The position numbers and the translations under genes were made by a program. 64,000 bases of DNA from Acanthopagrus schlegelii (lineage: Eukaryota). The notes under the pieces were generated by a model. The model was not told the DNA's origin and did no database searches. It saw only the letters and a list, made by a program, of their open reading frames with translations. The stretch's first letter is position 1. The number at the start of each line of letters is the position of its first letter. The DNA is taken from positions 12,255,563 to 12,319,562 of the forward strand of contig CM085492.1 of the NCBI GenBank assembly GCA_041753875.1. Reading direction: 5' to 3'. Below are positions 37,400 through 64,000 of the stretch, in pieces.

Positions 37400-37535
37400 T
37401 ACGAGCTGGAGCCTCCTCCGAAGAAACGGAAGTCTGTATCCTCTAGGCCCGCTGCTCTGTGTGTGGCTGTTAATGGAGCGTATGCTGCTGTTGGATACCA
37501 TGGGGACGGCTTCAAAGTCTACAGTCTTGATACAG
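37400..37535 (+). CDS. tep1: tep1 exon; YELEPPPKKRKSVSSRPAALCVAVNGAYAAVGYHGDGFKVYSLDT
   Basis: Matches human ALSVALSPDGDRVAVGYRADGIRIYKISSG. Confidence 0.85.
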
Positions 37536-37938: not shown

Positions 37939-37998
37939 GGGAGCAAACAAGGGAAGAAGTGTCATGGAATGAATGTCTCCCACAGGGGGTCAAAAGAG
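37939..37998 (+). CDS. tep1: tep1 putative small exon; (G)EQTREEVSWNECLPQGVKR
   Basis: Acceptor ctgcag| and donor g|GTACAT. The phase bridges exons at 37535 and 38920, but there is weak homology. Confidence 0.4.
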
Positions 37999-38919
37999 GT
38001 ACATCTTCTTCTGATAAATAATCATCAGTAATGTGGATATAATGACTAAGTGGGAAAAGACAAATATTAAAAGAAGAAGAAGAAAATTACATCACTTTAC
38101 AGCAACAACGTAGGTATGTCCCAAGTCTAAGATGATATATAGTTTTATATTTTGATAACTATATATCTTTATATTGCCCAGCCCTACAAGGGTTTCACCA
38201 AAGATCTTGAAGGAGGTAAAAGAGATGATATAGATATAGACTTTGATTGTGCAGAATAACAAAAGGTACTCAAGTGAAATAGCTCAGAGCAGACAACATA
38301 AACATACTGCAACAACAATAGAGAAACAAAAAGACAAACTAACACATCTCCCAAGAGAACATTGATGAAGCTCTGGTTTCACCAAGCCACTAAATTATAA
38401 GATGATATATTCATAACATCAATCAGCAAATACAAAGCAAAGAGATGCACCTTAATAGTTTCAAGAAATGAAACTAATACAATTGTAACAATCCCTGAAA
38501 TGTAAATAAAGATTATATTGAATAACAAAGACACCAATCATGAACGTCAATAGATAACCTGCCTGATGCAAGAGTGTATACCCCAACTCTCCTTCACCCT
38601 GTATGAGTTGTAAAATCACAAAGTAGATCTGGTAAACAGACTATAACTGTGTATGTTTATTTATGGATCCCCATTAGAAGCACAGAGATTTGTCTATACT
38701 CTTGAAGATGAAAAATCCAAATGCGATAAAAAGTACAAACTGTTCTACTGAGAACAGTCAAACAAGCTATGCAGACACATGATAGTAGAGTACAAGCAGC
38801 ACTATTATGTATAGTATCTGAAAAAGTGAATGCTGTGTGTATATGGATAAAACTAAAGCTGACAAATTGAACTGATGAAAGACGTCAAGATACTGAGAAT
38901 ATATCTTTTCTAATCGTAG

Positions 38920-39171
38920 CTGAGAAGATTTGGGCCCCCAAATATCTTGACGTGTCCGTTCTGTGCATGCTGTGGGTCGTTCTGGACGCGGAGAAGAAGG
39001 AACCTGAGCTGCTGCTGACTGCAGGAAGTGACAAGCGTGTGAGGGTGTGGAAGAGAAAAGGAGGAGAGGAGGGGATGCTGGGAGGCCTGGAGGAGCAGGG
39101 ATTATTTGGTGCCCAATCAGGCGTCGTCCTGGCATTAGCGCAAAACTCCACATACCTGGCCTCAGCTTCAG
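38920..39171 (+). CDS. tep1: tep1 WD exon; (A)EKIWAPKYLDVSVLCMLWVVLDAEKKEPELLLTAGSDKRVRVWKRKGGEEGMLGGLEEQGLFGAQSGVVLALAQNSTYLASAS
   Basis: Track ORF 38952..39182. Confidence 0.8.
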
Positions 39172-39326
39172 GTAAGTGTTAGAGAAATGTCCTTGAACAT
39201 CAGAGAAATACATGCTATCATGGTTTTTAGAGCAACATGATATATTTCTCAAGTACAAGGTGCTTTTAAGGAACAGATATTTTCTGCTGATTACTGTATT
39301 ATTCTCTGTGTATCTCATTGAATTAG

Positions 39327-39478
39327 ATGACTGCACCATTTTTCTGTGGCTGCTCAGCGTTCTGGCTGAAGACCCCTGTATGGACCCTCATGCAGTTCTG
39401 AGGGGCCACACTGGAGGAGTCACCTGTCTGGCTTTCAGCCCTGATGGTGGACAGCTGCTGTCTGGTGGGAAAGATCAG
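39327..39478 (+). CDS. tep1: tep1 WD exon; (G)DDCTIFLWLLSVLAEDPCMDPHAVLRGHTGGVTCLAFSPDGGQLLSGGKDQ
   Basis: Track ORF 39212..39493. Matches human ASEDFTVQLWPRQLLTRPHKAEDFPCGTELRGHEGPVSCCSFSTDGGSLATGGRDRS. Confidence 0.95.
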
Positions 39479-39749
39479 GTACAATATATTTGAGCTACAG
39501 TTAAGTGAGAATATCAGGATTTTGTTTTTGATGCGAACACTGACCATATTAATAGAAAACAATTGCTGTAGGGGCGTTTAAGAGTACCGGTAACTAAACC
39601 CCAGATGTTTGGCTAAAGTGCCTCTACCCTGGAAATTAAAAAATGCCTCAACATGGGCATGACTGGCAGTGGGTACTCTAATTGATACTGTAGATATGAG
39701 TCTGTGATTGTTCAGTGCAGCGCAGTACTGATGAGTGTCTTTGTTTCAG

Positions 39750-39857
39750 GCCCTGATGGTTTGGGATGTTACTGCGTCTCCTCCTGCTCTCTCCAAGTCA
39801 CTCCCCCACTCTCACAGAGACTGGATCACCGGCTGTGTTTGGACTCCAGACTGTGTG
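39750..39857 (+). CDS. tep1: tep1 WD exon; ALMVWDVTASPPALSKSLPHSHRDWITGCVWTPDCV
   Basis: Matches human LLCWDVRTPKTPVLIHSFPACHRDWVTGCAWTKDNLL. Confidence 0.95.
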
Positions 39858-39961
39858 GTAAATCTTCATTACTGTCAGTGTTGTAAAGAAATGTAACCAG
39901 AGAAAGTCATATTACTATACTAAATTAAGGGATCCTTATCAGCTTCCCTTTTCTCCTCCAG

Positions 39962-40066
39962 ATAAGCTCATCAAATGATGGGAGGCTCTGTTTATGGGAT
40001 CTGCTGGCAGGCGAATGTCTTAAAGAAATCTCCTGGAGGAGCCCTCTTACATCTGTCTGCTGTGTG
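39962..40066 (+). CDS. tep1: tep1 WD exon; ISSSNDGRLCLWDLLAGECLKEISWRSPLTSVCCV
   Basis: Matches human ISCSSDGSVGLWDPESGQRLGQF. Confidence 0.9.
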
Positions 40067-40231
40067 GTGAGCAAATTGCACATCTGTCTGTCAGAGAAAA
40101 TACAGGATGTGGTGTTTCCTTCTCTCCAGAAAAAAACTTGTATGCATTTCATTGACGCATTGATGGAGAAAATGAGCTCCATATTTCGTGAATATTGAGA
40201 TCTTGTGTTGACTTGGTGTTTCTTTGTGCAG

Positions 40232-40361
40232 GGTCAGTATGTGATTGCTGGCTGTGCAGAAGGAGTGCTCCACGTTTGGACCTGGAAAACGGGTGTTGAA
40301 ATCTCCCACATTGCTGCACACAAGCAGCGTATCCATCACTGCTCCCTCCTGCCAAATACAG
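40232..40361 (+). CDS. tep1: tep1 WD exon; GQYVIAGCAEGVLHVWTWKTGVEISHIAAHKQRIHHCSLLPNT
   Basis: Acceptor ttgtgcag| and donor g|GTAAGC. Confidence 0.75.
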
Positions 40362-40491
40362 GTAAGCTTACTGGAAAATGAGTACAAGCACACTTACAGT
40401 ATTTGAAACTGCCTTTCCCTTTTAAATTCATACTATATGATATGATAAGAGTCCGAGGCTGAATTTTTTTTGTTTTTTGTTTTTACCACAG

Positions 40492-40565
40492 AAGTCAACC
40501 CAGAGGAGATGTCTGTTTTCACTGCGTCTGACGATGGTATAGTGCAGCTCTGGAAACCACTACAG
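40492..40565 (+). CDS. tep1: tep1 WD exon; (E)VNPEEMSVFTASDDGIVQLWKPLQ
   Basis: Matches human MLTASEDGSVRLWQVP. Confidence 0.85.
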
Positions 40566-40698
40566 GTCTGTCAGTGAGAATCAAAGTTTATGCATTTTAG
40601 TCTAGATGCAGGGAAATAATGACTTCCTCATGGTTTTTGAACATAACAGAGCACACACTGTCATTTATTTCTCTGTTTCTCTGTATCTTTACGTTCAG

Positions 40699-40825
40699 GT
40701 GGAGCACAGCATGACCTTCCAGGGTCACAGCGGTGCAGTATCTGCAGTTTCTTGCTTTGGAAGGTCCCCAGATTTCTACACTATTTCTGAAGACCGCTCG
40801 TTGCGATCCTGGTGTTGGACAGAAC
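40699..40825 (+). CDS. tep1: tep1 WD exon; VEHSMTFQGHSGAVSAVSCFGRSPDFYTISEDRSLRSWCWTE
   Basis: Track ORF 40606..40836. Matches human QTHTLLGHSGPVRAAAVSETSG. Confidence 0.9.
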
Positions 40826-41254
40826 GTAATACTTGATACTCTACCTTTATATAATGCCATGAATATGTATTTTACGCCTTACACTTTATGGATATACAAA
40901 TATACAACTGATTATGCAGCATATGCATCTTTCAAACAAAGTCGTCTGTGTTTTACGGTCTTGTTTTTTACTGATAAATTCCAGCATCTTTCATGAGATG
41001 AAGAAACACATTACCCAAATGTCTCCTTTTTACATCCAAACTAACCTGTCAGAGTTTGTTCATGTCTGCAGAATAATCTTGTCGATCTTCCATTAATCAA
41101 GTCACAATGTTCCAGGTCATCTTCATAATTTGAAAACACTCTTTTCTGTGTATATTACTCTTCGCAGTCGTCACATGACGCTCCTCAGTGAAGAAGATAC
41201 TACATGGTTAATAAGCAGTGTATCCCAGTTCACCTGTGTGTTCTGTCTTTCCAG

Positions 41255-41385
41255 AGGGATCTCCAACACAGAAGGGCTCAGTCACAGCTCTCTGCTTCTC
41301 TCCCGGAGATGATCTACTTCTCGCCGGTTATGAATCCGGTTTGCTGAGATTATGGCAACGCAACGCCGTGGTTGGACAAAAGCAG
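41255..41385 (+). CDS. tep1: tep1 WD exon; (Q)GSPTQKGSVTALCFSPGDDLLLAGYESGLLRLWQRNAVVGQKQ
   Basis: Track ORF 41218..41508. Matches human PRSSAAVTAVAWAPDGSMAVSGNQAGELILWQEAKAVATAQ. Confidence 0.9.
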
Positions 41386-41500
41386 GTGAAGGCATACATC
41401 AGTACACAAGAAATAAACGGATGTACAGTGGACACGTGTTTGTTTGGGTTAGATTTTCACATGCTGTGTCTGTGTGTGCGTACGTGTGGGTGTATGTCAG

Positions 41501-41622
41501 ACTTCTGACAGGACCATCACAGCAATCTGCTCCATGCCTGACAACCAGTTTGCTGTCGCCTACATGGTACCTGTTGTTGATGTGTGGAAGCTAGTGTGGA
41601 ATAAACAACACGGCACCGCCAG
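41501..41622 (+). CDS. tep1: tep1 exon; TSDRTITAICSMPDNQFAVAYMVPVVDVWKLVWNKQHGTA
   Basis: Acceptor tgtcag| and donor ag|GTAAAC. Confidence 0.7.
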
Positions 41623-42533
41623 GTAAACAACAGCAAATCAGTCACACTACTAAGCTACCAGCTGCACCATGTTATGCTCATTTTCAGCTTCATAATTTTA
41701 TTTTGGGTTATTATTAGAATAAGTTTGCATGCCTTAATGCTCAAAAAGCACATTGGTTTTCCAAAACTGTCCAGTACTGCAGCTCTGTATTCCTCCTTTG
41801 TCTGAAACACTCTTTTAGTTCCCGTCTCTTTAGGGGCTGAATGTGACAGGGAAAAATGTAAAATACAAACCAAAAGTTCACTGCCTTTTTCTTTGTACAA
41901 AATGAAAAAAAAATATTAAAGAAATATGTAGGTGACAAAATGTATTTTTTTGTTTTCCTTCCTTAAATTTGCAGTTAATTGAAAGGGACGACAAGTAGTG
42001 AATTGAGAAGTCCACATTATCAGAATAATGTTTTAAAGTCAGTGCATTAATTCAGAGTGCTCCATTAACCCAAATTTAGTTGTTTTGTTTTTTTTCATAT
42101 ATTTTGTATAGCTTTTTTCATCAATATTTACAAGATGAGTTTGTATCAACATTTCACTCCTACTCCCACTCGACCACTCTGAGCCGTCAGTGTAGCTACA
42201 AAACAATAATGATCATTTACAAAATGATAATATTGATAATAAAAAACAAACTAAAGGGCCATATGAATTTTAAGAAGTTAGATTTTCAGGTCTTTCATCC
42301 AAAAATACAAGAATTGAACATTGCATACAATAATTAACCCACAATCTTAAACAAAGATCCCAAAGTTTGGGAACAGTTCACTGTTGATGTTTGGGAGCTG
42401 TGATATATGTGTGTTGACTTTAAGAACAAGATGTGAAATTGAAAGCGCCTTTTCTATGGGGACAGCAGATCTATTGTGATGAGCTTGAGTGACAGCACTA
42501 ACCCATCCTGCTCTGTCCTCCTGTTGCTTACAG

Positions 42534-42677
42534 CCTGGTGAAGGTCAACACGTACAAAGTGACACAACCAGTGATCCACCTCAACTACTGTTCAGTCCTG
42601 ATTGGTGTGTCACGCATGGGACGAATATTCAGCGTCCCATCTGACAAAGACAACATGTGGAACTACACAGTCACATC
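42534..42677 (+). CDS. tep1: tep1 exon; (S)LVKVNTYKVTQPVIHLNYCSVLIGVSRMGRIFSVPSDKDNMWNYTVT
   Basis: Acceptor gcttacag| and donor tc|GTAACT. Confidence 0.65.
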
Positions 42678-42814
42678 GTAACTACATACATGATTATTTG
42701 ATGATGATTAGGTTTTTTGACTGTAGAGAAAACTAATTTCTTTGATACGATAAGGTGCTGCTGGGTTTCGTTTCCCTTTACATTGAGGATTTTTCTTTCT
42801 TGCCTGTATTGCAG

Positions 42815-42914
42815 TTGGGAGGATAATGTCCGAGTTTTGGGTATCATCCGTAATGACGAGAAAAGCATGTGGCTGGTGGGCGAATCAGAGGGAGAAGTTC
42901 ACATTGGCTTCATT
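42815..42914 (+). CDS. tep1: tep1 exon; (S)WEDNVRVLGIIRNDEKSMWLVGESEGEVHIGFI
   Basis: Track ORF 42717..42926. Confidence 0.75.
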
Positions 42915-43228
42915 GTGAGTTTCTAAATGATGATAATCTAGTAAAACAACACATATTAAAAGTAAAAAAATAGTGGAAGTATTTAATGAAATGAAAATGT
43001 TTCATTGCCAATTAAATGATTCTACTTGGCTAAACTTTTTTTATAGAAAACAATATCATCATTGTTCCAGTTTAGATAATGTGACATCAGTTTGTTAAAT
43101 GAACATTTCTTTTTTGTCTCAGATGTCCAAACATTTCAGTGAAAAGTCAAGTCAAACCTCATGTTAAGTGCACCACATAGTTTGTTTTCAGTAAATGTGA
43201 TTGTTGCCTGTGTCCTCTCCTCCCTCAG

Positions 43229-43340
43229 TTTGGCATGGGCCCCAAAACCCACATCAGTTCAGCTTTCAGTACGTTGAACCTGGAGACCAATGATGAGGAG
43301 AAGAAAAGGAGCATGATATCAGCTGTAATGGTGAAAGGAG
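43229..43340 (+). CDS. tep1: tep1 exon; FGMGPKTHISSAFSTLNLETNDEEKKRSMISAVMVKG
   Basis: Acceptor ccctcag| and donor g|GTACTA. Confidence 0.65.
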
Positions 43341-43464
43341 GTACTAAGCAAAACTAAAACTGTTAGTTACTTCTCTTTCTTCAAGCATATCCATGGCTAC
43401 TTGAGCTACTGTTACTGTTTTGATTTGTATTGTTTATCATCCAACGTCTTGTATGTTCTTTCAG

Positions 43465-43547
43465 ACTTTGTCGTGTGTGGAGACAGGGAGGGCAACATGT
43501 GGTTCATTCAGCCTCCGGAGCCTTCCACATGGAGCAACAGAAAACCT
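43465..43547 (+). CDS. tep1: tep1 exon; (D)FVVCGDREGNMWFIQPPEPSTWSNRKP
   Basis: Acceptor ctttcag| and donor cct|GTAAGA. Confidence 0.65.
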
Positions 43548-43714
43548 GTAAGAGCTCAGACACTGTGAAGAACAAATGTAAAAAGAATGTATATTGTTGT
43601 ATCGTAAAATGTATCAAATCTGGCATTCAGACTCTCACATAAAGGTCCAATGTGCAGGATTTAGTGACATCTTCATAGCTATGGTTTTTTTTAATGATGA
43701 TGTTTTATCCCCAG

Positions 43715-43819
43715 GCCCATAGCGACAGGATCAGTGTGCTGAGACTCACTGACCGCGTCATCATCTCCGCCTCCCACGACAGGACAGTGAAGCTGTGGGA
43801 CAGAAAGACAAAGAAGCAG
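43715..43819 (+). CDS. tep1: tep1 C-terminal WD exon; AHSDRISVLRLTDRVIISASHDRTVKLWDRKTKKQ
   Basis: Matches human IHSGSVTALHVLPELLVTGTLDRDVKLWDRPSMQ. Confidence 0.95.
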
Positions 43820-44729
43820 GTACATCACAGTCTTCAAAGAACAGTCTGACATTTTAGGAGACATACTTACTCGCTCCATGGTGGATAGTTAGATGACAAG
43901 ATATTTGTACGCTGAATACAATGGCATCAGACAGTTGTCTAAGCAATGACTTAACTGCTCTGTCCAAAATTAACAAAGTTAAAAGTCAAATGACACATAA
44001 GGTATTAACTATTGAGCTTTAGTGGTGCTGGTAGATGGATTTTATTAATTTTGGACAGAGGGAGGGTAACCGTTTCCCCCGTTGCCTGTTATTATGCTAA
44101 GCTAAGCTAACTAGCTGCTGCCTTTAAGAAGGTGGACCCATCTTCTCATCTAACTCAAGTCAAGAAGGTTTTCTTGTGCAATAGAAAAACATTTTCCTTA
44201 TATGTAAATCTAATACGTTAAAAATCTTGGGTGTTTTTATTTATTTGTTTCAACTTATTTATTTTTTATCTTGCAAAATGCAAAGGGTAAAGAATAACAA
44301 AATAAATATAAAAGTAAATGAATTTAGACATGAATAAAATTAATGCAAAATTAAATGGAAACATGAATAAATAAGTGGATTAATACAAAGGCAAGTAAAT
44401 ACAGAAGCAAATTAAAACATAAATATCAATGTATGTCATATTTTGTACATTAATTAATACATTAATTTTTAATAAATGGTTTGTACATTTAATGGTTTAG
44501 TTTTGTATCTGTAAAAATAATATCTTTTGTTCCTTCATATGTATTGAAAAACTGTATATATTTAATAATACATTTGCAATGTATTATAAAAAAATATCAG
44601 ATTACATTTTCTCTATATATTGACAAAATATATTGGTTATTGACATTTTTCTTATATTTTAAAAAAGATTAAACACAGTCTAAGACATTAGTCTTTCAGT
44701 GACCTTCTGTTCTCTATCTCTTCCTCCAG

Positions 44730-44849
44730 GTGGGAATGTTTGTGTGTGAAGGACCGGTCGTGAATTTGGAGGTGAACCCTAAAACACCCACCGAGCTGGT
44801 CTGTGGTGACGTGCAGGGAAAGCTGTACTTCCTGTCCTGGAAAGAATGA
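44730..44849 (+). CDS. tep1: tep1 terminal exon; VGMFVCEGPVVNLEVNPKTPTELVCGDVQGKLYFLSWKE*
   Basis: Acceptor cctccag| and TGA stop at 44847-44849. Matches the human TEP1 C-terminus LLGLFRCEGSVSCLEPWLGANSTLQLAVGDVQGNVYFLNWE*. Confidence 0.95.
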   Translation: MGMFVCEGPVVNLEVNPKTPTELVCGDVQGKLYFLSWKE

Positions 44850-47612: not shown

Positions 47613-47799
47613 AGGGAGGAGTGAAAACAACCGGCAGTATCAACACGGGACGGACAGAAAGTCGACAAATCTTCACTAACAACACCAAACAGCGGCGGGA
47701 TAGCTTAACACTGAACAACTGCGGGATAACTCAACACTAAACAACTGCAGCATAACTTAACACTTACGTTACACAAGGGCGGACGTAAAGGAGCTAATG
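47613..47799 (+). CDS. putative first coding exon of the APOL-domain gene: mostly 5'UTR, ending with the start codon ATG (47797-47799) followed directly by donor GTGAGT
   Basis: Acceptor tttctcag| at 47612 and ATG|GTGAGT at 47799/47800. The next exon (47954) begins in phase 0. This is an inference; a possible upstream non-coding exon ends at 47446 (cag|GTGAGT). Confidence 0.3.
47690..47775. repeat. ~26-nt tandem repeat x ~2.5 (gatagcttaacactgaacaactgcgg / gataactcaacactaaacaactgcag / cataacttaacact)
   Basis: Read directly; it lies in the putative 5' exon just upstream of an ATG|GTGAGT junction. Confidence 0.6.
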
Positions 47800-47953
47800 G
47801 TGAGTTAACGTTCACATTCGTCCTCTACAAACGAGCTAATGTTCGTGTCGAGACGTTCTGCTGTCGACTGTCTCGAGACATTGTTCAAAATGTCGGTTAG
47901 CGTATCGTTAATGTTCAAATAACCGTTCATGACGATGTGTGTTCGTTTGACAG

Positions 47954-48019
47954 GAGCGATACGACAACCTGGATTTGGACCTGGAGTGTGATGGAGGAGG
48001 AGGAGGAGGAGGTGTAGCT
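47954..48019 (+). CDS. APOL-domain gene exon; ERYDNLDLDLECDGGGGGGGVA (phase 0-0)
   Basis: Acceptor tttgacag| and donor gct|GTGAGT. Contains a (GGA)7 run encoding poly-Gly. Confidence 0.4.
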
Positions 48020-49484
48020 GTGAGTAGATATCTTCTGATTATGAGCATAATCTAACTTTAGCCGGTTAACGTTTGTGGTTAAAGGTTTACTGTGTTGGAG
48101 TCACAGTTTTTCTCCTCGCTGAGGTCGGATGAGTAGAGTTCATCGATCCGACCTAAATCCATGTGACTGAAACTCAATACAGGCTTCTAATGCACAATGC
48201 AGTCCATAGGTATGTGCTCAGTGACATATTTTTTGTTGCTCTGGCTCGAAACTCCAACACAATGGACTTTAATATCAAATAATAAAAGATTAAATGAATG
48301 CTGACTTTTACCTTTAATTGGAGTGTGCTGTGTAGAAACTGTCCTTTCTTCATGGCCGGATTAACCTTCTAGGTTGCTCCAGGGCAAACATGTGCCATTG
48401 GGCCCCCTATAGCCCCCCTACACCAGATTAGCGATTAACCAGTGATGGAATGTAACCAAGAACATTTATTCAAGTACTATACTTAAGTGCAATATTAGTT
48501 TACGTATACGTACTACTTTTTTCTGTGTCTGTTTTCAATTGTTCACGATAAGGAGTGAGCATTTGTGGCAGCAGGCGCCACCCAGAGAAAAGGCGCAGGT
48601 CCCAGCATCTTTTATTTCCGCTTCACTGTCGCTCTTTTTTCTTTTTCCTGGCCTAGTCAATAATATTCACCATATTTTTGTCTTCTACGGATCATGTTGT
48701 GAACCGACATCGTCCATGCTCTGATGTCCTGATGTCAAATTAAAACGAAATAGATGGTAAACCGTAAAAGGGCAGATGTCAAGATATTGTTTTCATAGAG
48801 ACAACGTCACACGTGCAGCCTTTTTTCTCTCAGCACACAAGTGCTTAATTAATAAATGCCCCTGAGCACACAGCCTTACATTTTCTGCCTGAAAAAATGC
48901 TATGACATTGGCCCAAAGGTTACTTGTTACTTTGCAGATTGCATACATCATCAGAGCTATAAAAAAAAAAGGCATTATAGTTTTGGTTTATTATGATCTA
49001 TCAGTAATGCCTGTGGGTGCTGTTTTATGTGATTCTTAAACAGGTTAATAGTATTATGATCAATTTTCCCTGGGCTAGAAGACATAATTTTCACATAAAT
49101 TAATATTCTCATAAATTAACTGTCATCAAGGTTTCAAGTCCAGACATGAAACCAGCTTCAAGTCCAGGCTTGAAATCTCGATGTGAAACTGGACTGTGAG
49201 AAGTAAACCAGTCAGTGCTCTCATCCATAAATCCATTAGAAAAGTGTTGGTCATTTGCAGCGTCTTTTGCAGTTCAGTCTCCATGTGAAGCAAATATGAT
49301 GCTGCTGACTCACAGGTCTCTGCAGTAGATGTTTGCCCTGTGTTAGTCACTCATTTTGAATGATGCCGGTATGTCAGAACTGAAACCACTTCAGAGATTA
49401 GTCTTATGTAATCATCCTGAGTGGGTTTTACATGTATATCATTCACTAAATGTGTTTAATTTTCCACTTTCACCTCCCATGCAG

Positions 49485-49556
49485 CAGAAAGTGGCAATAT
49501 TTGGTGGGATGTTCAAAAGATCCTCCAAGATTGCTGAACCATCCGCGCAATCACAG
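49485..49556 (+). CDS. repeat-array exon, type A (basic); QKVAIFGGMFKRSSKIAEPSAQSQ
   Basis: Track ORF 49356..49568. Acceptor catgcag| and donor cag|GTGATG, phase 0-0. Confidence 0.55.
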
Positions 49557-49851
49557 GTGATGTTGTAGTTTTATCCTTGTTTAATTTAAATGTAGAACCT
49601 AACATTTAGTAAACCAGTACACTGAAAAGAGATCTCTCGTGAAAAGCTTATATTGACTATTAATCCCTGATACTAGTGTTTAAGATGGTTACTCATACTC
49701 ACATTGTTGACATGTATAACAATAAAATTGCTATAAGCGCTATCTTGTAAAACAAGTAGTTAGAATTCAGAAATGAAACGTAAAATAAAATGTGTTTATG
49801 ATTTGATTTGCTTCCGCATTTACTCACATCAGTTCTGTACTGACTTTTCAG

Positions 49852-49917
49852 GACACATTATCAGTGAACAGCGACCTTTCAAAGAGCAGCGACAGTCTGA
49901 CTGACAGCAGCACAAAG
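49852..49917 (+). CDS. repeat-array exon, type B (acidic/Ser); DTLSVNSDLSKSSDSLTDSSTK
   Basis: Acceptor ttttcag| and donor aag|GTGATG, 22 codons, 0-0. Confidence 0.55.
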
Positions 49918-50045
49918 GTGATGCTCACTATTTAATTTTTCTTTTCTAATCTTATGTCTGGTCATCACCAACTGTGATCGGCGTGTTATTATTAAATGAC
50001 AGTGTTTCTTGAGCATGTTGACAGTAAATTACATTCATCTTTCAG

Positions 50046-50114
50046 GAGAAAGGAGGCGTGTTGAAAGGAATGTTCAAGAAGACGACCAAAACCGCCAAAG
50101 AGGGCCAATCACAG
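50046..50114 (+). CDS. type A; EKGGVLKGMFKKTTKTAKEGQSQ
   Basis: Acceptor ttcag| and donor cag|GTTTGT, 23 codons, 0-0. Confidence 0.55.
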
Positions 50115-50485
50115 GTTTGTAGTGGTTTAACTACAGTTTAACTGAAGTTATTAGTAGATGGCTTATTGTTAAAGCCATTTATATTTATCAAACACATGCT
50201 AAACATTTGCTGGTTCCAGCTTCTTAAATGTGAGGATTTGGTGCCATTTTTCCCCTAAAAATATCACTGTTAATTCAAATATCTGTGGACTTTTAAGTCT
50301 CTAAAAGCTCTTTTGTCATTACTCTAAAAAGAATACTGACTTGAGTACTCAAAATGTGTTTTGAATCTGTCAACAAAATGGGAACAACTAAAAAAAGGAT
50401 TGTCTCAAAATGATTAAATATTTTAATTTGTGTCTCCACAATTGTATAGAAATATGAGAGGTTAATCGTTTTTTATCATTTATAG

Positions 50486-50557
50486 GACACCCTTTCACTA
50501 CAAAATCCTGAACTGTCTGTCAGTAGTGACAGCTTAACAGACAACAAGTCCTCAAAG
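50486..50557 (+). CDS. type B; DTLSLQNPELSVSSDSLTDNKSSK
   Basis: Acceptor tatag| and donor aag|GTGAGT, 24 codons, 0-0. Confidence 0.55.
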
Positions 50558-50645
50558 GTGAGTTAACTCTCTGCTCTGTGATATTTTCCCACGCAGAATT
50601 TTGTCTTGTCAGTCTTTAAAGCTAATCCTTTCTCTACACTTTTAG

Positions 50646-50717
50646 GAGAAATCAGGTGTGTTCGGTGGGATACTGAAACGAGCTGGTAAACCAGGACACG
50701 CCCGGAGGCCTTCACAG
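50646..50717 (+). CDS. type A; EKSGVFGGILKRAGKPGHARRPSQ
   Basis: Acceptor tttag| and donor cag|GTGAGA, 24 codons, 0-0. Confidence 0.55.
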
Positions 50718-50837
50718 GTGAGACAGAATCTTCTGTTATATGTCAGAGATAATGTATACCATTTGAAAACACAGTGGTCAGCTTAATGCCAGATATGTAA
50801 AATGTCTATAATTGTGATGTAACATTGTGTGTTTCAG

Positions 50838-50900
50838 GATCTGTTGGACAACGACTTTACAGCCAGTAACGACAGTCTGTCTGAAAACACTGCAACTAAA
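50838..50900 (+). CDS. type B; DLLDNDFTASNDSLSENTATK
   Basis: Acceptor tttcag| and donor aaa|GTGAGC, 21 codons, 0-0. Confidence 0.55.
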
Positions 50901-51705
50901 GTGAGCCTCATCAGCCAAGTTTTTTATTTAAAGAAAACAAAGAACAAAGTCTTTGTTCTTCAATGCTCTTTTTAAATATTTTGTTAATAAAATCACTGTA
51001 TGTCAATCAACCAACAAAAATTGGGGAAGATTCAAAAGAAGTCTTGTTACAGTGGCAATTTTGTATTTTTTATTGGTAGTTTTTATTATTTGTAACTATT
51101 TATTTGTAAGTTTTTGTTTGAGCTCACCAAACTAAATTCCTGTCAACTATGTTTGATGGCACCAAAGTTTTGAATCTTGAATTTGATTAATGTGTGTTAA
51201 ATTATTATCAAACAGTCAAAGTAAGAACACATGTCTGTTGCTGTTATTTATTTAACACTTATCAAGTGAAGAATCACATCACTTTGTGTCCAAGAGATGT
51301 TTCTTAGGACAAAAAACTACTTTACCAACACTGAGTGTTCAGTATTGTCAAGTTGGTATTGAAGAATAGAAACATACAGTACATGTGAGGGATTTTGCTT
51401 GGTGTTAATTAGGGACGTATGATGGTCTTTCTGATGTTGTTCAGCCTACAGTAGGCGTGTGGACCTCAACTCAGGTTTGGAAGGGTGTGTTTTTGTTTTT
51501 GTGGGTGTTTGGAAGTGTGAGCTGAACCTGCTAGCATCAGCAGTATGAAAGAAATGCTGGCTCCTGCGTGTAAAGCACAAAAGGCCTGCCTGTCCATCTG
51601 ACAGCTGCATCAGTTCAAAAGACAACAGAGCTGGTTTGATTTTATTTTATTTCAACAAACTGTATATATGTATATATGTGTCTTTTACGATGTGTCTTTT
51701 TCCAG

Positions 51706-51771
51706 GAGACAGGAGGAGTGTTCAGTGGGATGTTTAAAAAAAAGCCTTTTGGAGCGAGGACACAATCTCAG
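51706..51771 (+). CDS. type A; ETGGVFSGMFKKKPFGARTQSQ
   Basis: Track ORF 51676..52050 frame. Acceptor tttccag| and donor cag|GTGAGA. Confidence 0.6.
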
Positions 51772-51861
51772 GTGAGAGTTGTGCATCTTACTCTACCTCT
51801 GTTACATCATTTGAAAATAAACAATAATAATCAGGTGGGGACATTTGTTTCTTGCCTTCAG

Positions 51862-51930
51862 GAGGATTTGTCTGCACCAAGCGAGCTCTCAGGCAGCACT
51901 GACAATCTCTCTGTGAATAGCAACACTAAG
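51862..51930 (+). CDS. type B; EDLSAPSELSGSTDNLSVNSNTK
   Basis: Acceptor ccttcag| and donor aag|GTAAAG. Confidence 0.6.
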
Positions 51931-52555
51931 GTAAAGTTTGTGAAAGCTTCACCTTACATCAAACATACAAACTGTCCTCAACTTGTGATATTAAAGCTGC
52001 CATGGCAGTTCCTAGCAGCACAGTTCTTCCTTGTTTTCATTCTAAACTGAAGCTGCACTCATGATACATCTCTGTTTTGGTTTACATTTGCCCCTTTGTC
52101 CATCCACTTCAATTTTGAAATCTGAATAACTGATTTAAGCACGCATTTCATGTTCTAGTGCAACTTCTACCTGCACCATCAACTATTTTAAACATTGGTG
52201 CTTTGAAATGAATAATGAATGAAGTCATAATACTTGAATTTATATTTATTTCTTCTTTTACTAAAGTATAAGATCTTAATATTCTTCCATGTCTTATACT
52301 TTTTCGGAGCTGAACAGTTACATTGAATAATGTGACTGTCCCCAATTGTTTGTACAGAGCTGAAAGCATTGGATGAGAATTTGTGAGATGTGTGTTTCTG
52401 TTTTTGTTTTGATGTGTGTTGGGAAGGATGAGAGGTAAAACTTCATCCATCAGCATTTTGAAGAAAGTACAGGCTGCAGTGTGACATCCCTGCCCATCCA
52501 TCTGCCACCTGAAAAATCTCTTAGTAATTCTTTCTTTTGTTTGACTTTTTTACCA

Positions 52556-52627
52556 GGAGACAGGAGGGATCTTCAGTGGGATGTTTAAAAAATCCCCCAA
52601 GCCTTTTGGAGCAACAACACAGTCTCA
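52556..52627 (+). CDS. type A; ETGGIFSGMFKKSPKPFGATTQSQ
   Basis: Acceptor ttaccag| and donor cag|GTGAGA. Confidence 0.6.
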
Positions 52628-52712
52628 GGTGAGAATTGTGCTTCTCACTTGTACCACTGCATCATTAGGAGACAATAGTAAATGAAAGGGGATGTTGTTT
52701 TCTCGCTTTTAG

Positions 52713-52781
52713 GAGGATTTGTCGGCACCCAACGAGCTCTCAGGCAGCGCGGACAATCTTTCTGTGAATAGCAACACTAAG
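52713..52781 (+). CDS. type B; EDLSAPNELSGSADNLSVNSNTK
   Basis: Acceptor cttttag| and donor aag|GTGAGG. Nearly identical to 51862..51930. Confidence 0.6.
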
Positions 52782-52857
52782 GTGAGGAACACTTTATTAA
52801 ATTCCTCTATTTTTGGCAAAACTTCATACACTGTTCTCATGTGAATTTTGTTTCCAG

Positions 52858-52923
52858 GAGGGAGGAGGGATTTTTAGTGGAATGTTTAAAAAAAAGCTTC
52901 TTGGATCAAGGACACAATCTCAA
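52858..52923 (+). CDS. type A; EGGGIFSGMFKKKLLGSRTQSQ
   Basis: Acceptor gtttccag| and donor caa|GTGAGC. Confidence 0.6.
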
Positions 52924-53022
52924 GTGAGCATACGATATATATACATCTCACCATTAAACCATGTGACCATAAATTATTAGAATTAAAAATTAATTGACTG
53001 GCTTTTTTTTCTTGCCTTGAAG

Positions 53023-53091
53023 GATGATTTGTCTGCTCCCAGCGAGCTCTCGGGCAGCACCGACAATCTGTCTGAGGGTAAAGACACTAAG
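53023..53091 (+). CDS. type B; DDLSAPSELSGSTDNLSEGKDTK
   Basis: Acceptor ccttgaag| and donor aag|GTGAGG. Confidence 0.6.
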
Positions 53092-53596
53092 GTGAGGTTT
53101 GTCAAAACCACCCACGCCAATCTTCAAGCGACACAACACTTTAAGTGCAATCCATATTCATAAATGTGCTCATATTAAAGGTGAAATAAATGATATTTGC
53201 TGTCATTAGACATGGCACTAGAACACGAGCATCTCAGACCAAAACAAATGTGTGCTTCGCTCACTCAGTAGAGTTGAAACTCAGAAGAAACTGTCAAACT
53301 ACATAGGCAGTGCTGATCAAATATGAATCAAGCCTCTGTTGCTACAAAGTCTTCATGCAAATGTTTTCAGAAACATACTTTTGTGAGCTGTTTTAGCTTT
53401 GATATGAGAAAGTTCCTCACCAGGCCACCATGTTGAAAACGGAGAAATTCACATTACAGGCACACACAGGCAGATGTGACAACATTTTCTTCTCAGGATG
53501 CCATTTTTACTTTACATAGCAAATGCCTGTTTACCCCTATATACATGTTCAAAATCTTATATATTTAACCTTCAACATTTGGCTTCATATTCTCAG

Positions 53597-53656
53597 GAGA
53601 AAGGAGGAATCTTTAGTGGTGTGTTCAGAAAAAAAGTCACCAAATCTCAGTCTCAG
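53597..53656 (+). CDS. type A; EKGGIFSGVFRKKVTKSQSQ
   Basis: Acceptor ttctcag| and donor cag|GTAAGA. Confidence 0.55.
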
Positions 53657-53896
53657 GTAAGATGATAATAATAAGGTTTTCAATGCTGATGTGAACCCTT
53701 TTTTGGTGGTGTAAAAAAGATAGGGATCAAACCAGAGATGTTGAGAATAAAGTACGAATGCAATATGTTGCAGCAGTTTTCACCATCCTTTTTCCCTTCA
53801 GTCATTGAGAAACATGGTTGATAATTCACACATTTAATAAAACACTTGAGCATTTTCGTCTTGGTTAGTACATTCTGATTGCATCTCTCTGTTTAG

Positions 53897-53962
53897 GATG
53901 ACTTGTTTGCCGATGGGGAGCTCTCTGCCAGCAGTGACAGCCTCATAGAGGCGTCTTCAAAG
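53897..53962 (+). CDS. type B; DDLFADGELSASSDSLIEASSK
   Basis: Acceptor gtttag| and donor aag|GTAAGA. In-frame with track ORF 53903..54130. Confidence 0.55.
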
Positions 53963-54758: not shown

Positions 54759-54812
54759 AAAAAACTCACTGATGCGATGACAAAGCTGAATCCATTTCGA
54801 TCTGCAAATAAA
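54759..54812 (+). CDS. exon; KKLTDAMTKLNPFRSANK
   Basis: Acceptor attcag| and donor aaa|GTAAGA. A paralogous exon lies at 55921. Confidence 0.5.
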
Positions 54813-55920: not shown

Positions 55921-55974
55921 AACGCCATGGTTGGAGCCATGTCCAAGTTGAACCTATTCCGCTCTGCAAATAAA
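55921..55974 (+). CDS. exon; NAMVGAMSKLNLFRSANK (paralog of 54759..54812)
   Basis: Acceptor cccccccag| and donor aaa|GTAACT. Confidence 0.5.
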
Positions 55975-57297: not shown

Positions 57298-57375
57298 GTC
57301 AAAAGCAACATGATCCAGCAAGAGAGAAAAGACAGAAGTGAAACACCAACGGTCCCGCCTAGACCAACTGAAGAG
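57298..57375 (+). CDS. exon; VKSNMIQQERKDRSETPTVPPRPTEE
   Basis: Acceptor ttgtcag| and donor gag|GTCTGT. A paralog lies at 57766 (..PVVPARPSEE). Confidence 0.45.
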
Positions 57376-57765: not shown

Positions 57766-57846
57766 AATAACAAGGATATGACCTCCAGAGAGAAAAAAGC
57801 AAAACCTGAAAAAACTCCAGTAGTTCCTGCCAGACCATCAGAAGAG
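57766..57846 (+). CDS. exon; NNKDMTSREKKAKPEKTPVVPARPSEE
   Basis: Acceptor ctctgcag| and donor gag|GTAGTT. Confidence 0.45.
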
Positions 57847-59581: not shown

Positions 59582-59662
59582 AACCAATCAGATGATGAAG
59601 GCCTCAAAAAAGATGAATCTGCTGAATCCAAAGACGAGACGAACTATACAGAAAGCAAAACA
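59582..59662 (+). CDS. exon; NQSDDEGLKKDESAESKDETNYTESKT
   Basis: Acceptor ttgctgcag| and donor aca|GTAAGT, 0-0. Confidence 0.5.
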
Positions 59663-60034: not shown

Positions 60035-60088
60035 ACCAAGGTGAAAAAACACAAGCATAATCCGTTCATGCCGCGAGTTGCAGCCAAG
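60035..60088 (+). CDS. second array, type C; TKVKKHKHNPFMPRVAAK
   Basis: Acceptor ttttgcag| and donor aag|GTATGT. Confidence 0.55.
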
Positions 60089-60204
60089 GTATGTGACAGT
60101 GTGTGTTTTTCTGGATTTTGCAGTTCATGTAGAGTTGTGAAGACATTTATATTTTAGACTCTCATCAACTGGTCATCATCAACACTTCTTGTTGTTTGCT
60201 TCAG

Positions 60205-60291
60205 GCTTCGTCTGATGATGAAGGGCTGAAAGAAGATGATGATTCTTCATCCAAAGAGGAAAAGAATGATGAGGAAGACAAAGCTGAGGAG
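60205..60291 (+). CDS. second array, type D; ASSDDEGLKEDDDSSSKEEKNDEEDKAEE
   Basis: Acceptor gcttcag| and donor gag|GTCTCC. Confidence 0.55.
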
Positions 60292-60452
60292 GTCTCCAGC
60301 TTTTTTTTTGTGCTATTTTTGCTTGTAGATTGATTTAAATATACACTGCTTGATTTTTACACATACAGTCAGCAGGACCAAATATTCATGTTACTGTCAT
60401 TACACATATTTAAGGTCTCTCTTCCTCAAAGTGACCAAATTTTTCTTTTCAG

Positions 60453-60503
60453 ACCAAACTCAAGAAACCTAAGAGACACAATCCCTTCATGCCTCGGGTC
60501 AAG
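60453..60503 (+). CDS. type C; TKLKKPKRHNPFMPRVK
   Basis: Acceptor cttttcag| and donor aag|GTAACA. Confidence 0.55.
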
Positions 60504-60629
60504 GTAACATCCAAACATGTACAAACTAGTTGTACTTGTAAATGAACAAACCTTTATGTTACTGTCATGTTTTGTACATGTTTATTTATTTCATTGTTAG
60601 GTTTACATGTTTGTTGTTGTTTACCTCAG

Positions 60630-60722
60630 GCTTCGTCTGATGATGAAGGTCTGAAAGAAGAAGATGATTCTTCATCCAAAGAGGAAAAGAATGACGAGGA
60701 GGGAAAAGACAAAACAGAGGAG
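60630..60722 (+). CDS. type D; ASSDDEGLKEEDDSSSKEEKNDEEGKDKTEE
   Basis: Track ORF 60567..60767 frame. Acceptor cctcag| and donor gag|GTCTTT. Confidence 0.55.
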
Positions 60723-60899
60723 GTCTTTAAATTCTTTTCCTTTTGCTGCATTTTGCTTGTTGATTGAATAAAATGTTCATGGTTTGTTTTTGACAATGAA
60801 AAGTTATCAAGAACAATTGTTCATTTTACCTGAAAAACTCAGAATGTGACGCGTATCTTCCTCAAAGTGATACTGAAACCATGATTTTCTTCTTTTTAG

Positions 60900-60950
60900 A
60901 CCAAAGTCAAGAAACCGAAGAGACACAATCCCTTCATGCCTCGGGTCAAG
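60900..60950 (+). CDS. type C; TKVKKPKRHNPFMPRVK
   Basis: Acceptor ctttttag| and donor aag|GTAACA. Identical intron-flank sequence to 60453..60503. Confidence 0.55.
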
Positions 60951-61045
60951 GTAACATCCAGACATGCGCCTCTGTGAAGGACTATCAGTTAAAGCATTTC
61001 TACTTTCAATTTTAAAAAATCTGTCTTTGTGTTGAATGGTTACAG

Positions 61046-61096
61046 GGCAGAGTTAAAGCGAGGGGAGAGGGTGGAGCTGCAGGCAACACAGCAGAG
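61046..61096 (+). CDS. exon; GRVKARGEGGAAGNTAE
   Basis: Acceptor ttacag| and donor gag|GTAGAG. Confidence 0.45.
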
Positions 61097-61835: not shown

Positions 61836-61913
61836 AATGAAGGTCAAAAAAGGACCTTGTTTGACCAGCTGGATGACTACCGTATTGACCCGGCACAGGG
61901 TGAAGAAGGACAG
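61836..61913 (+). CDS. exon; NEGQKRTLFDQLDDYRIDPAQGEEGQ
   Basis: Acceptor tgtttcag| and donor cag|GTTGGT. Confidence 0.5.
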
Positions 61914-62039: not shown

Positions 62040-62079
62040 GATGTGGAGGATCTCATGGAGTGGTGGGACACAGTGGAGT
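62040..62079 (+). CDS. exon; DVEDLMEWWDTVE (phase 0-1)
   Basis: Acceptor ctttcag| and donor t|GTAAGT. Confidence 0.5.
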
Positions 62080-62793: not shown

Positions 62794-62845
62794 CTTGGGA
62801 AGACACGGCTCAGGATGATGACATGACAGAAAAAGAAGAGGCCAA
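62794..62845 (+). CDS. exon; (S)WEDTAQDDDMTEKEEA (phase 2-2)
   Basis: Acceptor ttctccag| and donor aa|GTAAGT. In-frame with the neighbouring exons. Confidence 0.5.
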
Positions 62846-63296: not shown

Positions 63297-64000
63297 GGCT
63301 TTTGCTGTGACCGCAGAGAAAGTGCAGAAGGGCATCCGTGTTTTCAACAAACTGTTCTCGGAGCGCGCAGAGAGCCTCTGGCAGCACGTCATCGACCTCA
63401 ACACCATTGCAGATGGCCTGGACAAATTCAGCAAAAAGACCAAGATCGCCCAAATCACTGGTGGCTCCACCAGCGCCATCGGAGGCGTGGCCACGATTGC
63501 CGGCCTCGCTCTTGCACCAGTCACCATGGGAACCTCCTTGATTGTGACAGCAGTGGGACTGGGTGTTGCCACGGCAGGCGGTCTGACATCAGCAGGGGCC
63601 GGCATCTCCAACCAGGTAAACAATTCGATGGACCGCAAGAAGGTGGAGAAGATCATTAAGGATTATCAGGACAAGATGGTGGACCTCAACAAGTGCCTGA
63701 AGTTCATCAAGCAGGGGATTGAGAACCTGAAGAAGTTTGACCTGCTCAAGATGAAGGACAACGCTTACAACCGTGACTTCCCTGTGCTCACTGCTCAGTT
63801 CTATGAGGACGGTGCCATGGCAGGAAAGGCGATCCTCATCAACGCTAACGAGATCATGCGTGTGGTGCAGATCGCTAACGTGGCGGGCAGCACGGCCGCC
63901 AGAGCGGTCCAGATCGCCAGTATGGCTACTGGTGTACTCACCGGACTTTTCGTAGGTATGGACATTTACTTTGTGGCCAAAGACTCGAAAGAACTCAAGA
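63297..64000 (+). CDS. Apolipoprotein-L (APOL) domain terminal exon, partial; runs off the window. (K)AFAVTAEKVQKGIRVFNKLFSERAESLWQHVIDLNTIADGLDKFSKKTKIAQITGGSTSAIGGVATIAGLALAPVTMGTSLIVTAVGLGVATAGGLTSAGAGISNQVNNSMDRKKVEKIIKDYQDKMVDLNKCLKFIKQGIENLKKF...
   Basis: Acceptor tcctctcag| at 63295-63296. A long open frame continues to the window end. It carries the APOL-family hallmark ...LDK..KK..IA.ITGGS.SA.GG..TIAGL.LAP.T.G.SL..TA.G.G.A.A followed by a coiled-coil-like KK.EK...D.QDKM region, comparable to the human APOL1 LADELDKVHKGCNIANVVGGSTGAVGG..TIAGLILAP.T.G.SL segment. It is not on the ORF track because there is no stop within the window. Confidence 0.75.

Follow-up and report, generated by a model that had tools for sequence, protein, structure and literature searches.

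The DNA analyzed here (the window; 64,000 nucleotides of contig CM085492.1 of the black seabream Acanthopagrus schlegelii, to which all positions refer) carries a gene that extends on the plus strand from about 47.8 kb to beyond the window end at 64 kb, and thus spans more than 16 kb. Embedded in this gene, between positions 49485 and 53962, are seven pairs of very short exons (types A and B; 14 exons of 60-72 nt, all on the plus strand) that encode a repeat with an alternating basic and acidic character. We consider it highly probable that these 14 segments are exons 3-16, already annotated as coding, of the "apolipoprotein L1" gene of the black seabream, and that the repeat encoded by them is old, teleost-wide and under purifying selection. 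The spliced model of the gene (including an exon at 61046-61096) matches residues 1-1001 of KAM8728429.1 at 100% identity; this entry is the 1086-amino-acid "apolipoprotein L1 isoform 1" of A. schlegelii. This protein consists of three parts: a short acidic N-terminus, a predicted-disordered region of about 740 residues, and a C-terminal ApoL domain (Pfam PF05461). The disordered region makes up about 70% of the protein and is built almost wholly from about 35 phase-0 mini-exons. PF05461 matches residues 773-1027 of KAM8728429.1 (E = 3.6e-35; 122 bits), and it is likewise detected in the open reading frame (ORF) at 63297-63999 of the window (E = 1.1e-28; 101 bits, with a cut-off of 25.9). Judged by its domain, the gene belongs to the ApoL family; the array of mini-exon pairs lies outside of this domain.

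We located the exons through a mechanical scan for open segments bordered by AG and GT whose length is a multiple of three. All 14 borders were recovered exactly, each exon possesses a pyrimidine-rich acceptor, a GT donor and a frame that is open from its first base, and phase 0-0 holds for 14 of 14. The original prediction, which had been made from the letters of this DNA alone, claimed seven pairs of 60-72-nt exons with AG/GT borders, all of the 0-0 class, together with two peptide motifs for the types A and B; on each of these points it agrees with the scan and the translations. The exons measure, in their order, 72, 66, 69, 72, 72, 63, 66, 69, 72, 69, 66, 69, 60, and 66 nt. The first pair comprises A1 (49485..49556; QKVAIFGGMFKRSSKIAEPSAQSQ; net charge +3), which is preceded by a NAGNAG acceptor (cagcag), and B1 (49852..49917; DTLSVNSDLSKSSDSLTDSSTK; net charge -2). 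It is followed by A2 (50046..50114; EKGGVLKGMFKKTTKTAKEGQSQ; +4) and B2 (50486..50557; DTLSLQNPELSVSSDSLTDNKSSK; -2), and by A3 (50646..50717; EKSGVFGGILKRAGKPGHARRPSQ; +5), which contains the near-invariant sequence GHxRRPSQ, and B3 (50838..50900; DLLDNDFTASNDSLSENTATK; -4). The next three pairs, A4 (51706..51771; ETGGVFSGMFKKKPFGARTQSQ) and B4 (51862..51930; EDLSAPSELSGSTDNLSVNSNTK), A5 (52557..52628; ETGGIFSGMFKKSPKPFGATTQSQ) and B5 (52713..52781; EDLSAPNELSGSADNLSVNSNTK), and A6 (52858..52923; EGGGIFSGMFKKKLLGSRTQSQ) and B6 (53023..53091; DDLSAPSELSGSTDNLSEGKDTK), form a central subfamily, and A7 (53597..53656; EKGGIFSGVFRKKVTKSQSQ) and B7 (53897..53962; DDLFADGELSASSDSLIEASSK) conclude the array. 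The exons A4 and A6 each contain an A8 homopolymer run (51736-51743 and 52888-52895) that codes for KKK. The protein of Acanthopagrus latus lacks nine residues after KKK in A4 (ETGGVFSGMFKKK/EDLS), a gap that may stem from a difference in run length or from an alternative donor.

In the protein, the array covers approximately residues 24-340 and consists of seven copies of a bipartite unit of about 46 amino acids, with one exon for each half. Half A combines a Gly-rich hydrophobic-basic core, GG-(I/V)-F-(S/G)-G-(M/I)-(F/L)-K-(K/R), with a basic Pro/Thr tail, while half B is acidic and rich in Ser/Thr and follows the pattern (E/D)-x-L-S ... ELS-x-S-x-D-(S/N)-L-(S/T). When the A and B peptides were compared by tblastn with the whole window, significant matches were found at these 14 sites only; hence, the array begins at A1 and totals seven pairs. 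Tandem Repeats Finder, run over 45-60 kb, detected no array in the 49-54 kb region, because the units have diverged, their spacing is irregular, and the introns within the array vary from 76 to 805 nt.

Upstream of the array, exon 2 (47954..48019; ERYDNLDLDLECDGGGGGGGVA) encodes the conserved acidic N-terminus and a poly-Gly stretch and is identical in KAM8728429.1. The annotated protein starts with MERYDN, and this exon opens with GAG (E) right after its acceptor, with an in-frame TGA located upstream. In the complementary DNA (cDNA) of a relative, ATG is contiguous with GAG CGG TAC (tttgaaATGgagcgg), and the window has tttgacagGAGCGA at this place (47945-47956). The only ATG that yields the annotated MERYDN is the one that ends the exon of the 5'-untranslated region (5'UTR; ATG followed by gtgagt). 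The start codon therefore seems to have been shifted to the exon boundary, and we infer that it is located at 47797..47799. Poly-Gly in exon 2 is encoded by a GGA/GGT run (47993-48013), and the number of Gly residues is seven in the window, three in A. latus and six in Sparus, which suggests a microsatellite-type length variation within a coding sequence. Upstream of the end of the presumed first exon, in the 5'UTR/promoter region, a 26-bp tandem repeat (AACACTAAACAACTGCGGGATAACTT) is present in 3.2 copies (47681-47764).

Downstream of the array, the same exon pattern, with short phase-0 exons that encode basic and acidic segments in alternation, continues for another 8 kb or so. Ten phase-0 mini-exons between 54159 and 57846 belong to the same disordered region and are identical in KAM8728429.1 (54159-54224, 54358-54405, 54596-54658, 54759-54812, 54908-54979, 55921-55974, 57000-57065, 57298-57375, 57484-57543, and 57766-57846). 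Another eight are found between 59582 and 61913 (59582-59662, 60035-60088, 60205-60291, 60453-60503, 60630-60722, 60900-60950, 61046-61096, and 61836-61913), those at 60205-60291 and 60630-60722 being acidic. Four of these 18 mini-exons encode an NPF motif of the EH-domain ligand type (KLNPF in 54759-54812; HNPF in 60035-60088, 60453-60503, and 60900-60950), and two separate ones encode a PxxPxR motif of the SH3 ligand type (PTVPPR in 57298-57375; PVVPAR in 57766-57846). The catfish ortholog contains the sequence PPVPPRPS, which matches the Pfam entry p47_phox_C, the proline-rich region of p47phox. Two linker exons of the phases 0-1 and 1-2 (62040-62079 and 62794-62845; DVEDLMEWWDTVE S WEDTAQDDDMTEKEEAK) lead to the terminal exon with the ApoL domain, which starts at 63297 and runs off the window end at 64000. 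A second duplicated exon pair is present within this downstream part: the segments 60186-60519 and 60611-60966 share 78% identity, introns included, and each of them encodes an acidic sequence (ASSDDEGLKE...) and a basic one (TK(V/L)KKPKRHNPFMPRVK). One copy of this pair is skipped in A. latus isoform X4 and in Sparus isoforms, and up to six copies are found in killifish and pupfish.

Our evidence for splicing derives from transcript contigs of relatives and from the annotated protein of the same species. A Logan contig of 1747 nt that originates from the cDNA of a relative (L001; SRR28040489) contains a 517-amino-acid ORF, and its blocks abut exactly at the borders of exon 2, of all 14 array exons and of six further exons before an intron is entered after position 57065. 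A second Logan contig of 4159 nt carries an ORF of 992 amino acids (P0085) in which six A/B pairs are combined with the remaining mini-exon region and an ApoL domain. This contig is too short to be genomic for a gene that extends over more than 16 kb, and one mRNA therefore contains both the array and the ApoL domain. When the locus of Pagrus major (L003) was compared with the window, exons were found to be about 94% identical and free of gaps, whereas the introns were about 87% identical and contained many gaps. We then calculated the ratio of nonsynonymous to synonymous substitutions (dN/dS) with the Nei-Gojobori method. For the array, it amounted to 0.18 against Pagrus and to 0.20 against the L001 cDNA (A exons 0.18; B exons 0.21); for the downstream mini-exons and the ApoL exon, the values against Pagrus were 0.35 and 0.02, respectively. 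Hence, the reading frame of the array is kept under purifying selection.

Their low-complexity composition, the silence of Tandem Repeats Finder, and the lack of a Pfam family might lead one to view these segments as non-functional, be it as an intronic satellite, as pseudo-exons or as a decaying repeat. A spliced cDNA contig with exact junctions, a full-length transcript contig, an identical annotated protein, exons that are devoid of insertions or deletions and better conserved than the introns, a dN/dS value of 0.2, and the conservation of the repeat across Teleostei speak against such a view; the transcript and selection evidence refutes it, and we see practically no room for it. These data support instead the claim that we are dealing with true mini-exons, which are spliced and coding and which originated through tandem duplication of an exon pair. 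Three further Logan contigs of about 2.8 kb (L004-L006), which are indexed in 149 blocks of the collection, are unspliced and colinear with the genome from the intron at about 62355 through the last two exons; they could represent genomic reads, intron-retaining RNA or RNA initiated at an internal promoter. "Proteins" of 316 amino acids that cluster with the orthologs are ORF calls with a GTG start on such genome-colinear contigs and do not speak for a short isoform.

How old are the individual units of the array? In a blastn comparison of the region with itself, similarity at the DNA level was detected among units 4, 5, and 6 only (79, 74, and 69% over about 240 nt), while units 1, 2, 3, and 7 are related to each other and to the central units solely at the level of the protein motif. 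Pairwise identities among units 4-6 range from 75 to 82% for the A exons, from 80 to 91% for the B exons, and from 60 to 68% for the internal A-B introns, but drop to 48-56% in the outer 100-nt flanks, a value to be compared with 50 +/- 3% for random pairs of 100-nt segments. Since the similarity of the internal introns exceeds the background of 50%, units 4-6 arose by tandem exon duplication. The original prediction had described the segment 51706-53091 as near-identical in both its exons and its intron flanks and had taken this as a sign of a recent duplication. Neither statement can be upheld: the exons are only 75-91% identical, the outer flanks are at background level, and each of the units 4, 5, and 6 possesses a one-to-one ortholog in Pagrus major (100, 89, and 89% amino acid identity, respectively). 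Recent copies, as we understand the term, would be more than about 95% identical including their flanks and would be absent from sister taxa; the one-to-one orthologs indicate that the duplications are at least as old as the common ancestor with Pagrus.

A unit-by-unit comparison of the proteins of ten species revealed that units 1, 2, 3, and the last one each have a signature of their own, with clear orthologs everywhere. The central subfamily, represented by units 4-6 in the window, follows the consensus E(S/T)GG-x-FSGMFKKSPKPFGARTQSQ / EDLSAPSELSGS-x-DNLSVNSNTK and varies from two to five copies depending on the lineage. The layout with seven units is also found in Sparus, Morone, Sebastes, and Chaetodon (C. 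auriga). Some of the central units in Hippoglossus, Epinephelus, and Chaetodon are closer to units of their own species than to those of other species, and this fits a local duplication, loss or gene conversion in these lineages. The emphasis of the original prediction could be maintained in a broader form if the array were a young, fast-evolving and lineage-specific expansion whose main property is rapid variation in copy number and isoforms. Among percomorphs, central units do vary from two to five and the total of A motifs from five to nine; the within-species likeness just mentioned and the residual intron similarity of 60-68% in units 4-6 point in the same direction. We nevertheless regard a young expansion as improbable: units 4, 5, and 6 have their one-to-one counterparts in Pagrus, the seven-unit layout is common to the four genera named above, the orthology of units 1, 2, 3, and 7 is stable, identity in the outer flanks of units 4-6 is at the level of the background, dN/dS is about 0.2, and the repeat is present in eels and older than the split between two paralogous genes, apol1 and apold1a, that carry it.

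The distribution of the repeat bears this out. With the spliced model as the query, a database search yielded more than 120 proteins from teleosts, which measure about 900-1280 amino acids, all contain PF05461 and mostly cover 100% of the query; the best match was the protein of A. latus (95% identity). A search with the 317-residue array alone likewise retrieved teleost proteins, among them one from Etheostoma with a single A/B pair and an ApoL domain. Most of the matches are named "apolipoprotein L1 isoform X...," and others bear misleading automatic names (starmaker-like, piccolo-like, dentin sialophosphoprotein-like, titin homolog, or nuclear pore complex protein-like). When 1.84 billion cluster representatives were searched exhaustively with the array-only ORF (phmmer), no more than 66 matches were obtained, and all repeat matches whose source was looked up derive from teleosts; a search of a collection of 5.8 billion proteins with a profile of the unit, which brought up just 282 candidates and four short fragments, is uninformative with respect to non-teleosts. 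Pfam holds no family for the 317-residue array or for residues 1-770 of KAM8728429.1, and the unit profile found no match among the PDB sequences at E <= 10. Hence, the repeat peptide is widely conserved in teleosts without having a Pfam or PDB relative.

Proteins of the apol1 type with the repeat were found in percomorphs, cod, Polymixia, squirrelfish, shad, smelt, and a catfish, and the repeat is also present in proteins of moray eel, eel, bonefish, and halosaur. A paralogous family of 1100-1700-residue proteins carries it as well; its members are named apold1a in Osmerus, Sardina, and Pungitius, "Apolipoprotein L domain containing 1a" in Mastacembelus, and, in the case of a trout relative, si:rp71-1g18.13, a zebrafish-derived name. 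These proteins likewise end in an ApoL domain. The number of A motifs varies between teleosts: from five to nine in the apol1 orthologs and up to about 15 in the paralog. An alignment of 62 units gave the consensus EKGGxFSGxFKKSPKP...QD..S...ELSASxDSLSEN. A repeat of this type is thus common to Elopomorpha, Clupeiformes and the paralogous gene, and its occurrence in both paralogs and in deep teleost lineages indicates that the unit is older than both the divergence of the paralogs and the base of the living teleosts. The proteins of the apold1a type possess, in addition, a conserved RRRTIKKKRRVVSFRVKKTLP segment in front of the ApoL domain and, following it, a Lys/Glu/Arg-rich tail of several hundred residues that ends with DGL(Y/D/N)I; neither the segment nor the tail is represented in Pfam.

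Any subset of the array exons can be combined without a change in frame as a consequence of their 0-0 phase, and according to the original prediction this architecture permits extensive exon skipping. In-frame skipping is indeed possible, and annotated isoforms of other species, computed by RefSeq, lack central A/B pairs: two pairs are missing from X6 of Epinephelus moara and from X6 of Hippoglossus stenolepis, three from X7 of the latter species and from X10 of Gymnodraco acuticeps, and one from X7 of Trematomus bernacchii. In sparids, the isoforms that we examined retain all 14 array exons; to the extent that these isoforms, which are computed models, reflect the transcripts, the array is constitutive in them. 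Sparid isoforms differ elsewhere, namely by a single Gln at the NAGNAG acceptor of A1 (cagcag; 49482-49487), by the inclusion of the NAMVGAMSKLNLFRSANK exon (55921-55974), and by the inclusion of one pair composed of an acidic and an NPF exon (about 60205-60950). The A. latus isoforms X1 and X2 are distinguished by that Gln residue (VAQKVAIF vs. VAKVAIF).

We next consider the physicochemical character of the array. The net charge ranges from +2 to +5 for each A exon and from -2 to -5 for each B exon, so that its sign alternates strictly from exon to exon, while the 317 residues sum to +1. This alternation continues in the downstream blocks (+6/-11/+7/-10/+7), and the charge autocorrelation peaks at 45-47 and at 92 residues. 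Charged residues make up a fraction of 0.26 of the array, which contains 16 Phe, with two of them in most of the cores. Each A core (GGIFSGMF and its variants) is flanked by three to six Lys/Arg residues, and the calculated Wimley-White interfacial energy, at about -2.3 to -2.6 kcal/mol in five of the seven, is less favorable in A3 (-1.8) and A2 (-0.8). The B halves consist of 26-50% Ser/Thr, and several of their Ser residues are positioned three residues before Asp/Glu or another Ser, a spacing that we take to be a casein-kinase-type pattern. The junction between A3 and B3 encodes GHARRPSQ/DLLD (50685-50717 / 50838-50849), which is near-invariant across 24 orthologs. Within unit 3, the columns H129, S134, Q135, and D136 are invariant and the RR pair is conserved also; the RRxS sequence matches a basophilic-kinase-type site and, as a putative site, sets unit 3 apart functionally from the rest of the array. 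AlphaFold2, provided with an alignment of 24 sequences, predicted no secondary structure for the array (pLDDT, the predicted local distance difference test score, about 30) and no helix in residues 20-380.

Several other assignments were considered for these sequences and rejected. A neuropeptide or antimicrobial polyprotein with dibasic cleavage sites does not agree with the lack of a signal peptide, the acidic N-terminus and the absence of Gly in front of KK. The fourth position of a potential clathrin box in B3 (LLDND) is not a conserved hydrophobic residue across species, and the core positions of B7 or B3 do not fit an FFAT (two phenylalanines in an acidic tract) or LIR (LC3-interacting region) motif. 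An FG-nucleoporin was dismissed in view of the charged spacers and of the ApoL domain in which the protein ends.

What might such an array accomplish? We tentatively suggest that it provides multivalent weak contact motifs that are separated by acidic spacers, a possibility to which we assign a limited likelihood and which we derive from the sequence features described above. The array would then be a string of short linear motifs and not a folded domain. Each A core would be unstructured and would offer acidic membrane surfaces or a protein partner a weak site of basic/aromatic contact, and the B halves would serve as spacers, whose phosphorylation on Ser could raise their negative charge and thereby loosen or mask the neighboring A sites. 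Valency would be set through the duplication, loss or skipping of exons. The array and the NPF and PxxPxR motifs downstream of it might jointly tether trafficking partners to the membrane that holds the ApoL hairpin. In a wider and more doubtful version of this proposal, ApoL-domain proteins (apol1 and apold1a) would possess in the A/B unit a regulatory module that is tunable by splicing, occurs throughout teleosts and has been kept for approximately as long as teleosts have existed. Its multivalent basic-aromatic cores, gated through phosphorylation of the acidic Ser spacers, would govern the place and time at which the membrane-inserting ApoL domain acts and would recruit trafficking proteins with EH and SH3 domains. 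Several points weigh against our explanation, the gene model included. The charge of the A exons (+2 to +5) is far below that of classical membrane-binding basic clusters; skipping within the array is found only in the computed RefSeq isoforms of four other species; and the position of the start codon was deduced indirectly. The charge-patterning parameter kappa of the array, 0.24 as compared with 0.18 for shuffled sequences (z = 2.2), is modestly elevated, while the sequence charge decoration (SCD) is the same as that of the shuffles. The AlphaFold2 model, finally, is poor throughout (mean pLDDT 34), the ApoL domain included, and this makes the call of disorder a weak one.

The features of charge and composition could also be accommodated by a sticker-and-spacer polyampholyte, in which the array would mediate self-association or condensate formation of a membrane-anchored protein instead of direct lipid binding. 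The strict exon-by-exon charge alternation that continues downstream, the near-neutrality of the array as a whole, its 16 Phe and seven Gly-rich cores (as potential Phe-Gly stickers), the predicted disorder, and a kappa value above that of shuffles for the array and more so for the whole disordered region (z = 2.9) are in line with this. However, kappa values of 0.2-0.24 are moderate, SCD equals that of the shuffles, and the charged fraction of the array is only 0.26. Since kappa is slightly high but SCD is not, we have not built our explanation on charge blockiness. Moreover, conservation in the array is position-specific, as exemplified by GHxRRPSQDLL in unit 3 and by the signatures of units 1, 2, and 7, and this argues for specific motifs and not for bulk composition; we therefore judge the polyampholyte to be rather unlikely. 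Still less can be said for the idea, which takes up a speculative remark of the original prediction on amphipathic membrane- or calmodulin-binding segments, that the A motifs bind calmodulin or anchor the protein in the membrane as amphipathic helices. Their basic-plus-hydrophobic composition is typical of such sites, and their helical hydrophobic moment is moderate (0.28-0.39). Yet AlphaFold2 predicts no helix for this region, although with a low-confidence model, each core contains three to four Gly residues, a Pro follows within four to six residues, and the unit profile has no relative in the PDB. The Gly and Pro residues leave at most about eight helical residues, too few for 1-5-10 or 1-8-14 calmodulin anchors. 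The proposal is thus without support from our data, and we consider it very unlikely.

The array can be compared with several known systems. Tandem arrays of symmetric exons occur in collagen (54-bp exons), in titin (PEVK exons) and at the 5' end of troponin-T genes (mini-exons). The seabream array resembles them in its short, duplicated exons of the same phase, in its repetitive, non-globular product and in the possibility of in-frame skipping. It differs from them in that its unit is a pair of unlike exons, one basic-hydrophobic and one acidic and Ser-rich, in that its units have diverged into position-specific orthologs, and in its unrelated sequence. The MARCKS effector domain bears a charge of about +13 and five Phe residues. 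As in MARCKS, Phe residues are placed among Lys/Arg in a non-helical segment, and by analogy adjacent Ser residues might function as an electrostatic switch; in contrast to MARCKS, the net charge of an A exon amounts to no more than +2 to +5, with two Phe, sequence homology is absent, and the parallel is a hypothetical one of mode of action. The spacers of GLFG nucleoporins are largely uncharged. Cores of the type GG-(L/I/V)-F-(S/G)-G recur in a disordered chain both in these nucleoporins and in the seabream protein, and the automatic naming of some orthologs as nuclear pore complex protein-like may be seen alongside this. The resemblance is compositional, however: the seabream protein has charged spacers of alternating sign and a membrane-inserting ApoL domain, and it is devoid of nucleoporin domains.

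The bona fide C-terminal ApoL domain connects the seabream protein with the mammalian ApoL proteins (APOL1-6 and APOLD1; PF05461). The human ApoL proteins comprise about 280-430 amino acids and are free of a long N-terminal repeat region, and APOL1 possesses a signal peptide. In contrast to human APOL1, the seabream protein starts with MERYDNLDLDLECDGGG and has no hydrophobic leader, and the A/B repeat, with neither a Pfam nor a PDB counterpart, sets it apart from the mammalian ApoL proteins. The designation "L1" should not be read as a sign of orthology to primate APOL1, for which the automatic name is the only support. The zebrafish apol1 gene shares its name with the seabream gene, and Ensembl and UniProt refer to the percomorph orthologs as "Apolipoprotein L, 1." It has been described as a 2.6-kb locus that encodes a short protein (NP_001025309.1), with no N-terminal repeat being mentioned (PMC4492502; PMC4854397); this ApoL-domain protein lacks a secretory signal (PMC4492502). 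In comparison with zebrafish apol1 as published, the seabream gene is larger than 16 kb and about 70% of its protein is encoded by mini-exons; the apol1 orthologs of catfish and shad carry the array. Fish are not discussed in a 2024 review of ApoL function (PMC11726835), and we found no description of the repeat in the literature that we searched.

The structure of the gene is in itself ordinary, given that its exons are already present in GenBank/RefSeq for the black seabream and for more than 100 other species, and duplicated in-frame mini-exons that code for disordered repeats are a familiar pattern. The repeat of about 46 residues, by contrast, is a conserved and hitherto undescribed sequence family that accompanies the ApoL domain in both of the paralogous genes of teleosts. 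The mini-exon region, which accounts for about 70% of teleost "apolipoprotein L1" and is lacking in primate APOL1, bears on the way in which experiments with fish apol1 are read. Should the repeat indeed be a regulatory module, then the protein studied in fish "apol1" models of human APOL1 disease would be one that lacks a human equivalent for most of its length. The misleading automatic names mentioned above could be corrected.

The surroundings of the gene were inspected as well. A scan of the 44-64 kb region with Rfam gave no match and hence no intronic RNA gene. A Pro/Tyr-rich ORF on the minus strand (7747-8417) appears TMBIM/GRINA-like by eye and has no Pfam match, and a RING-finger gene of the ZNRF-like type is located, also on the minus strand, at 16070-18267. 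Directly upstream of the apolipoprotein L1 gene, the plus strand carries a TEP1-like gene (about 25900-44800), with matches to TROVE, DUF4062, and the WD40/TEP1 propeller.

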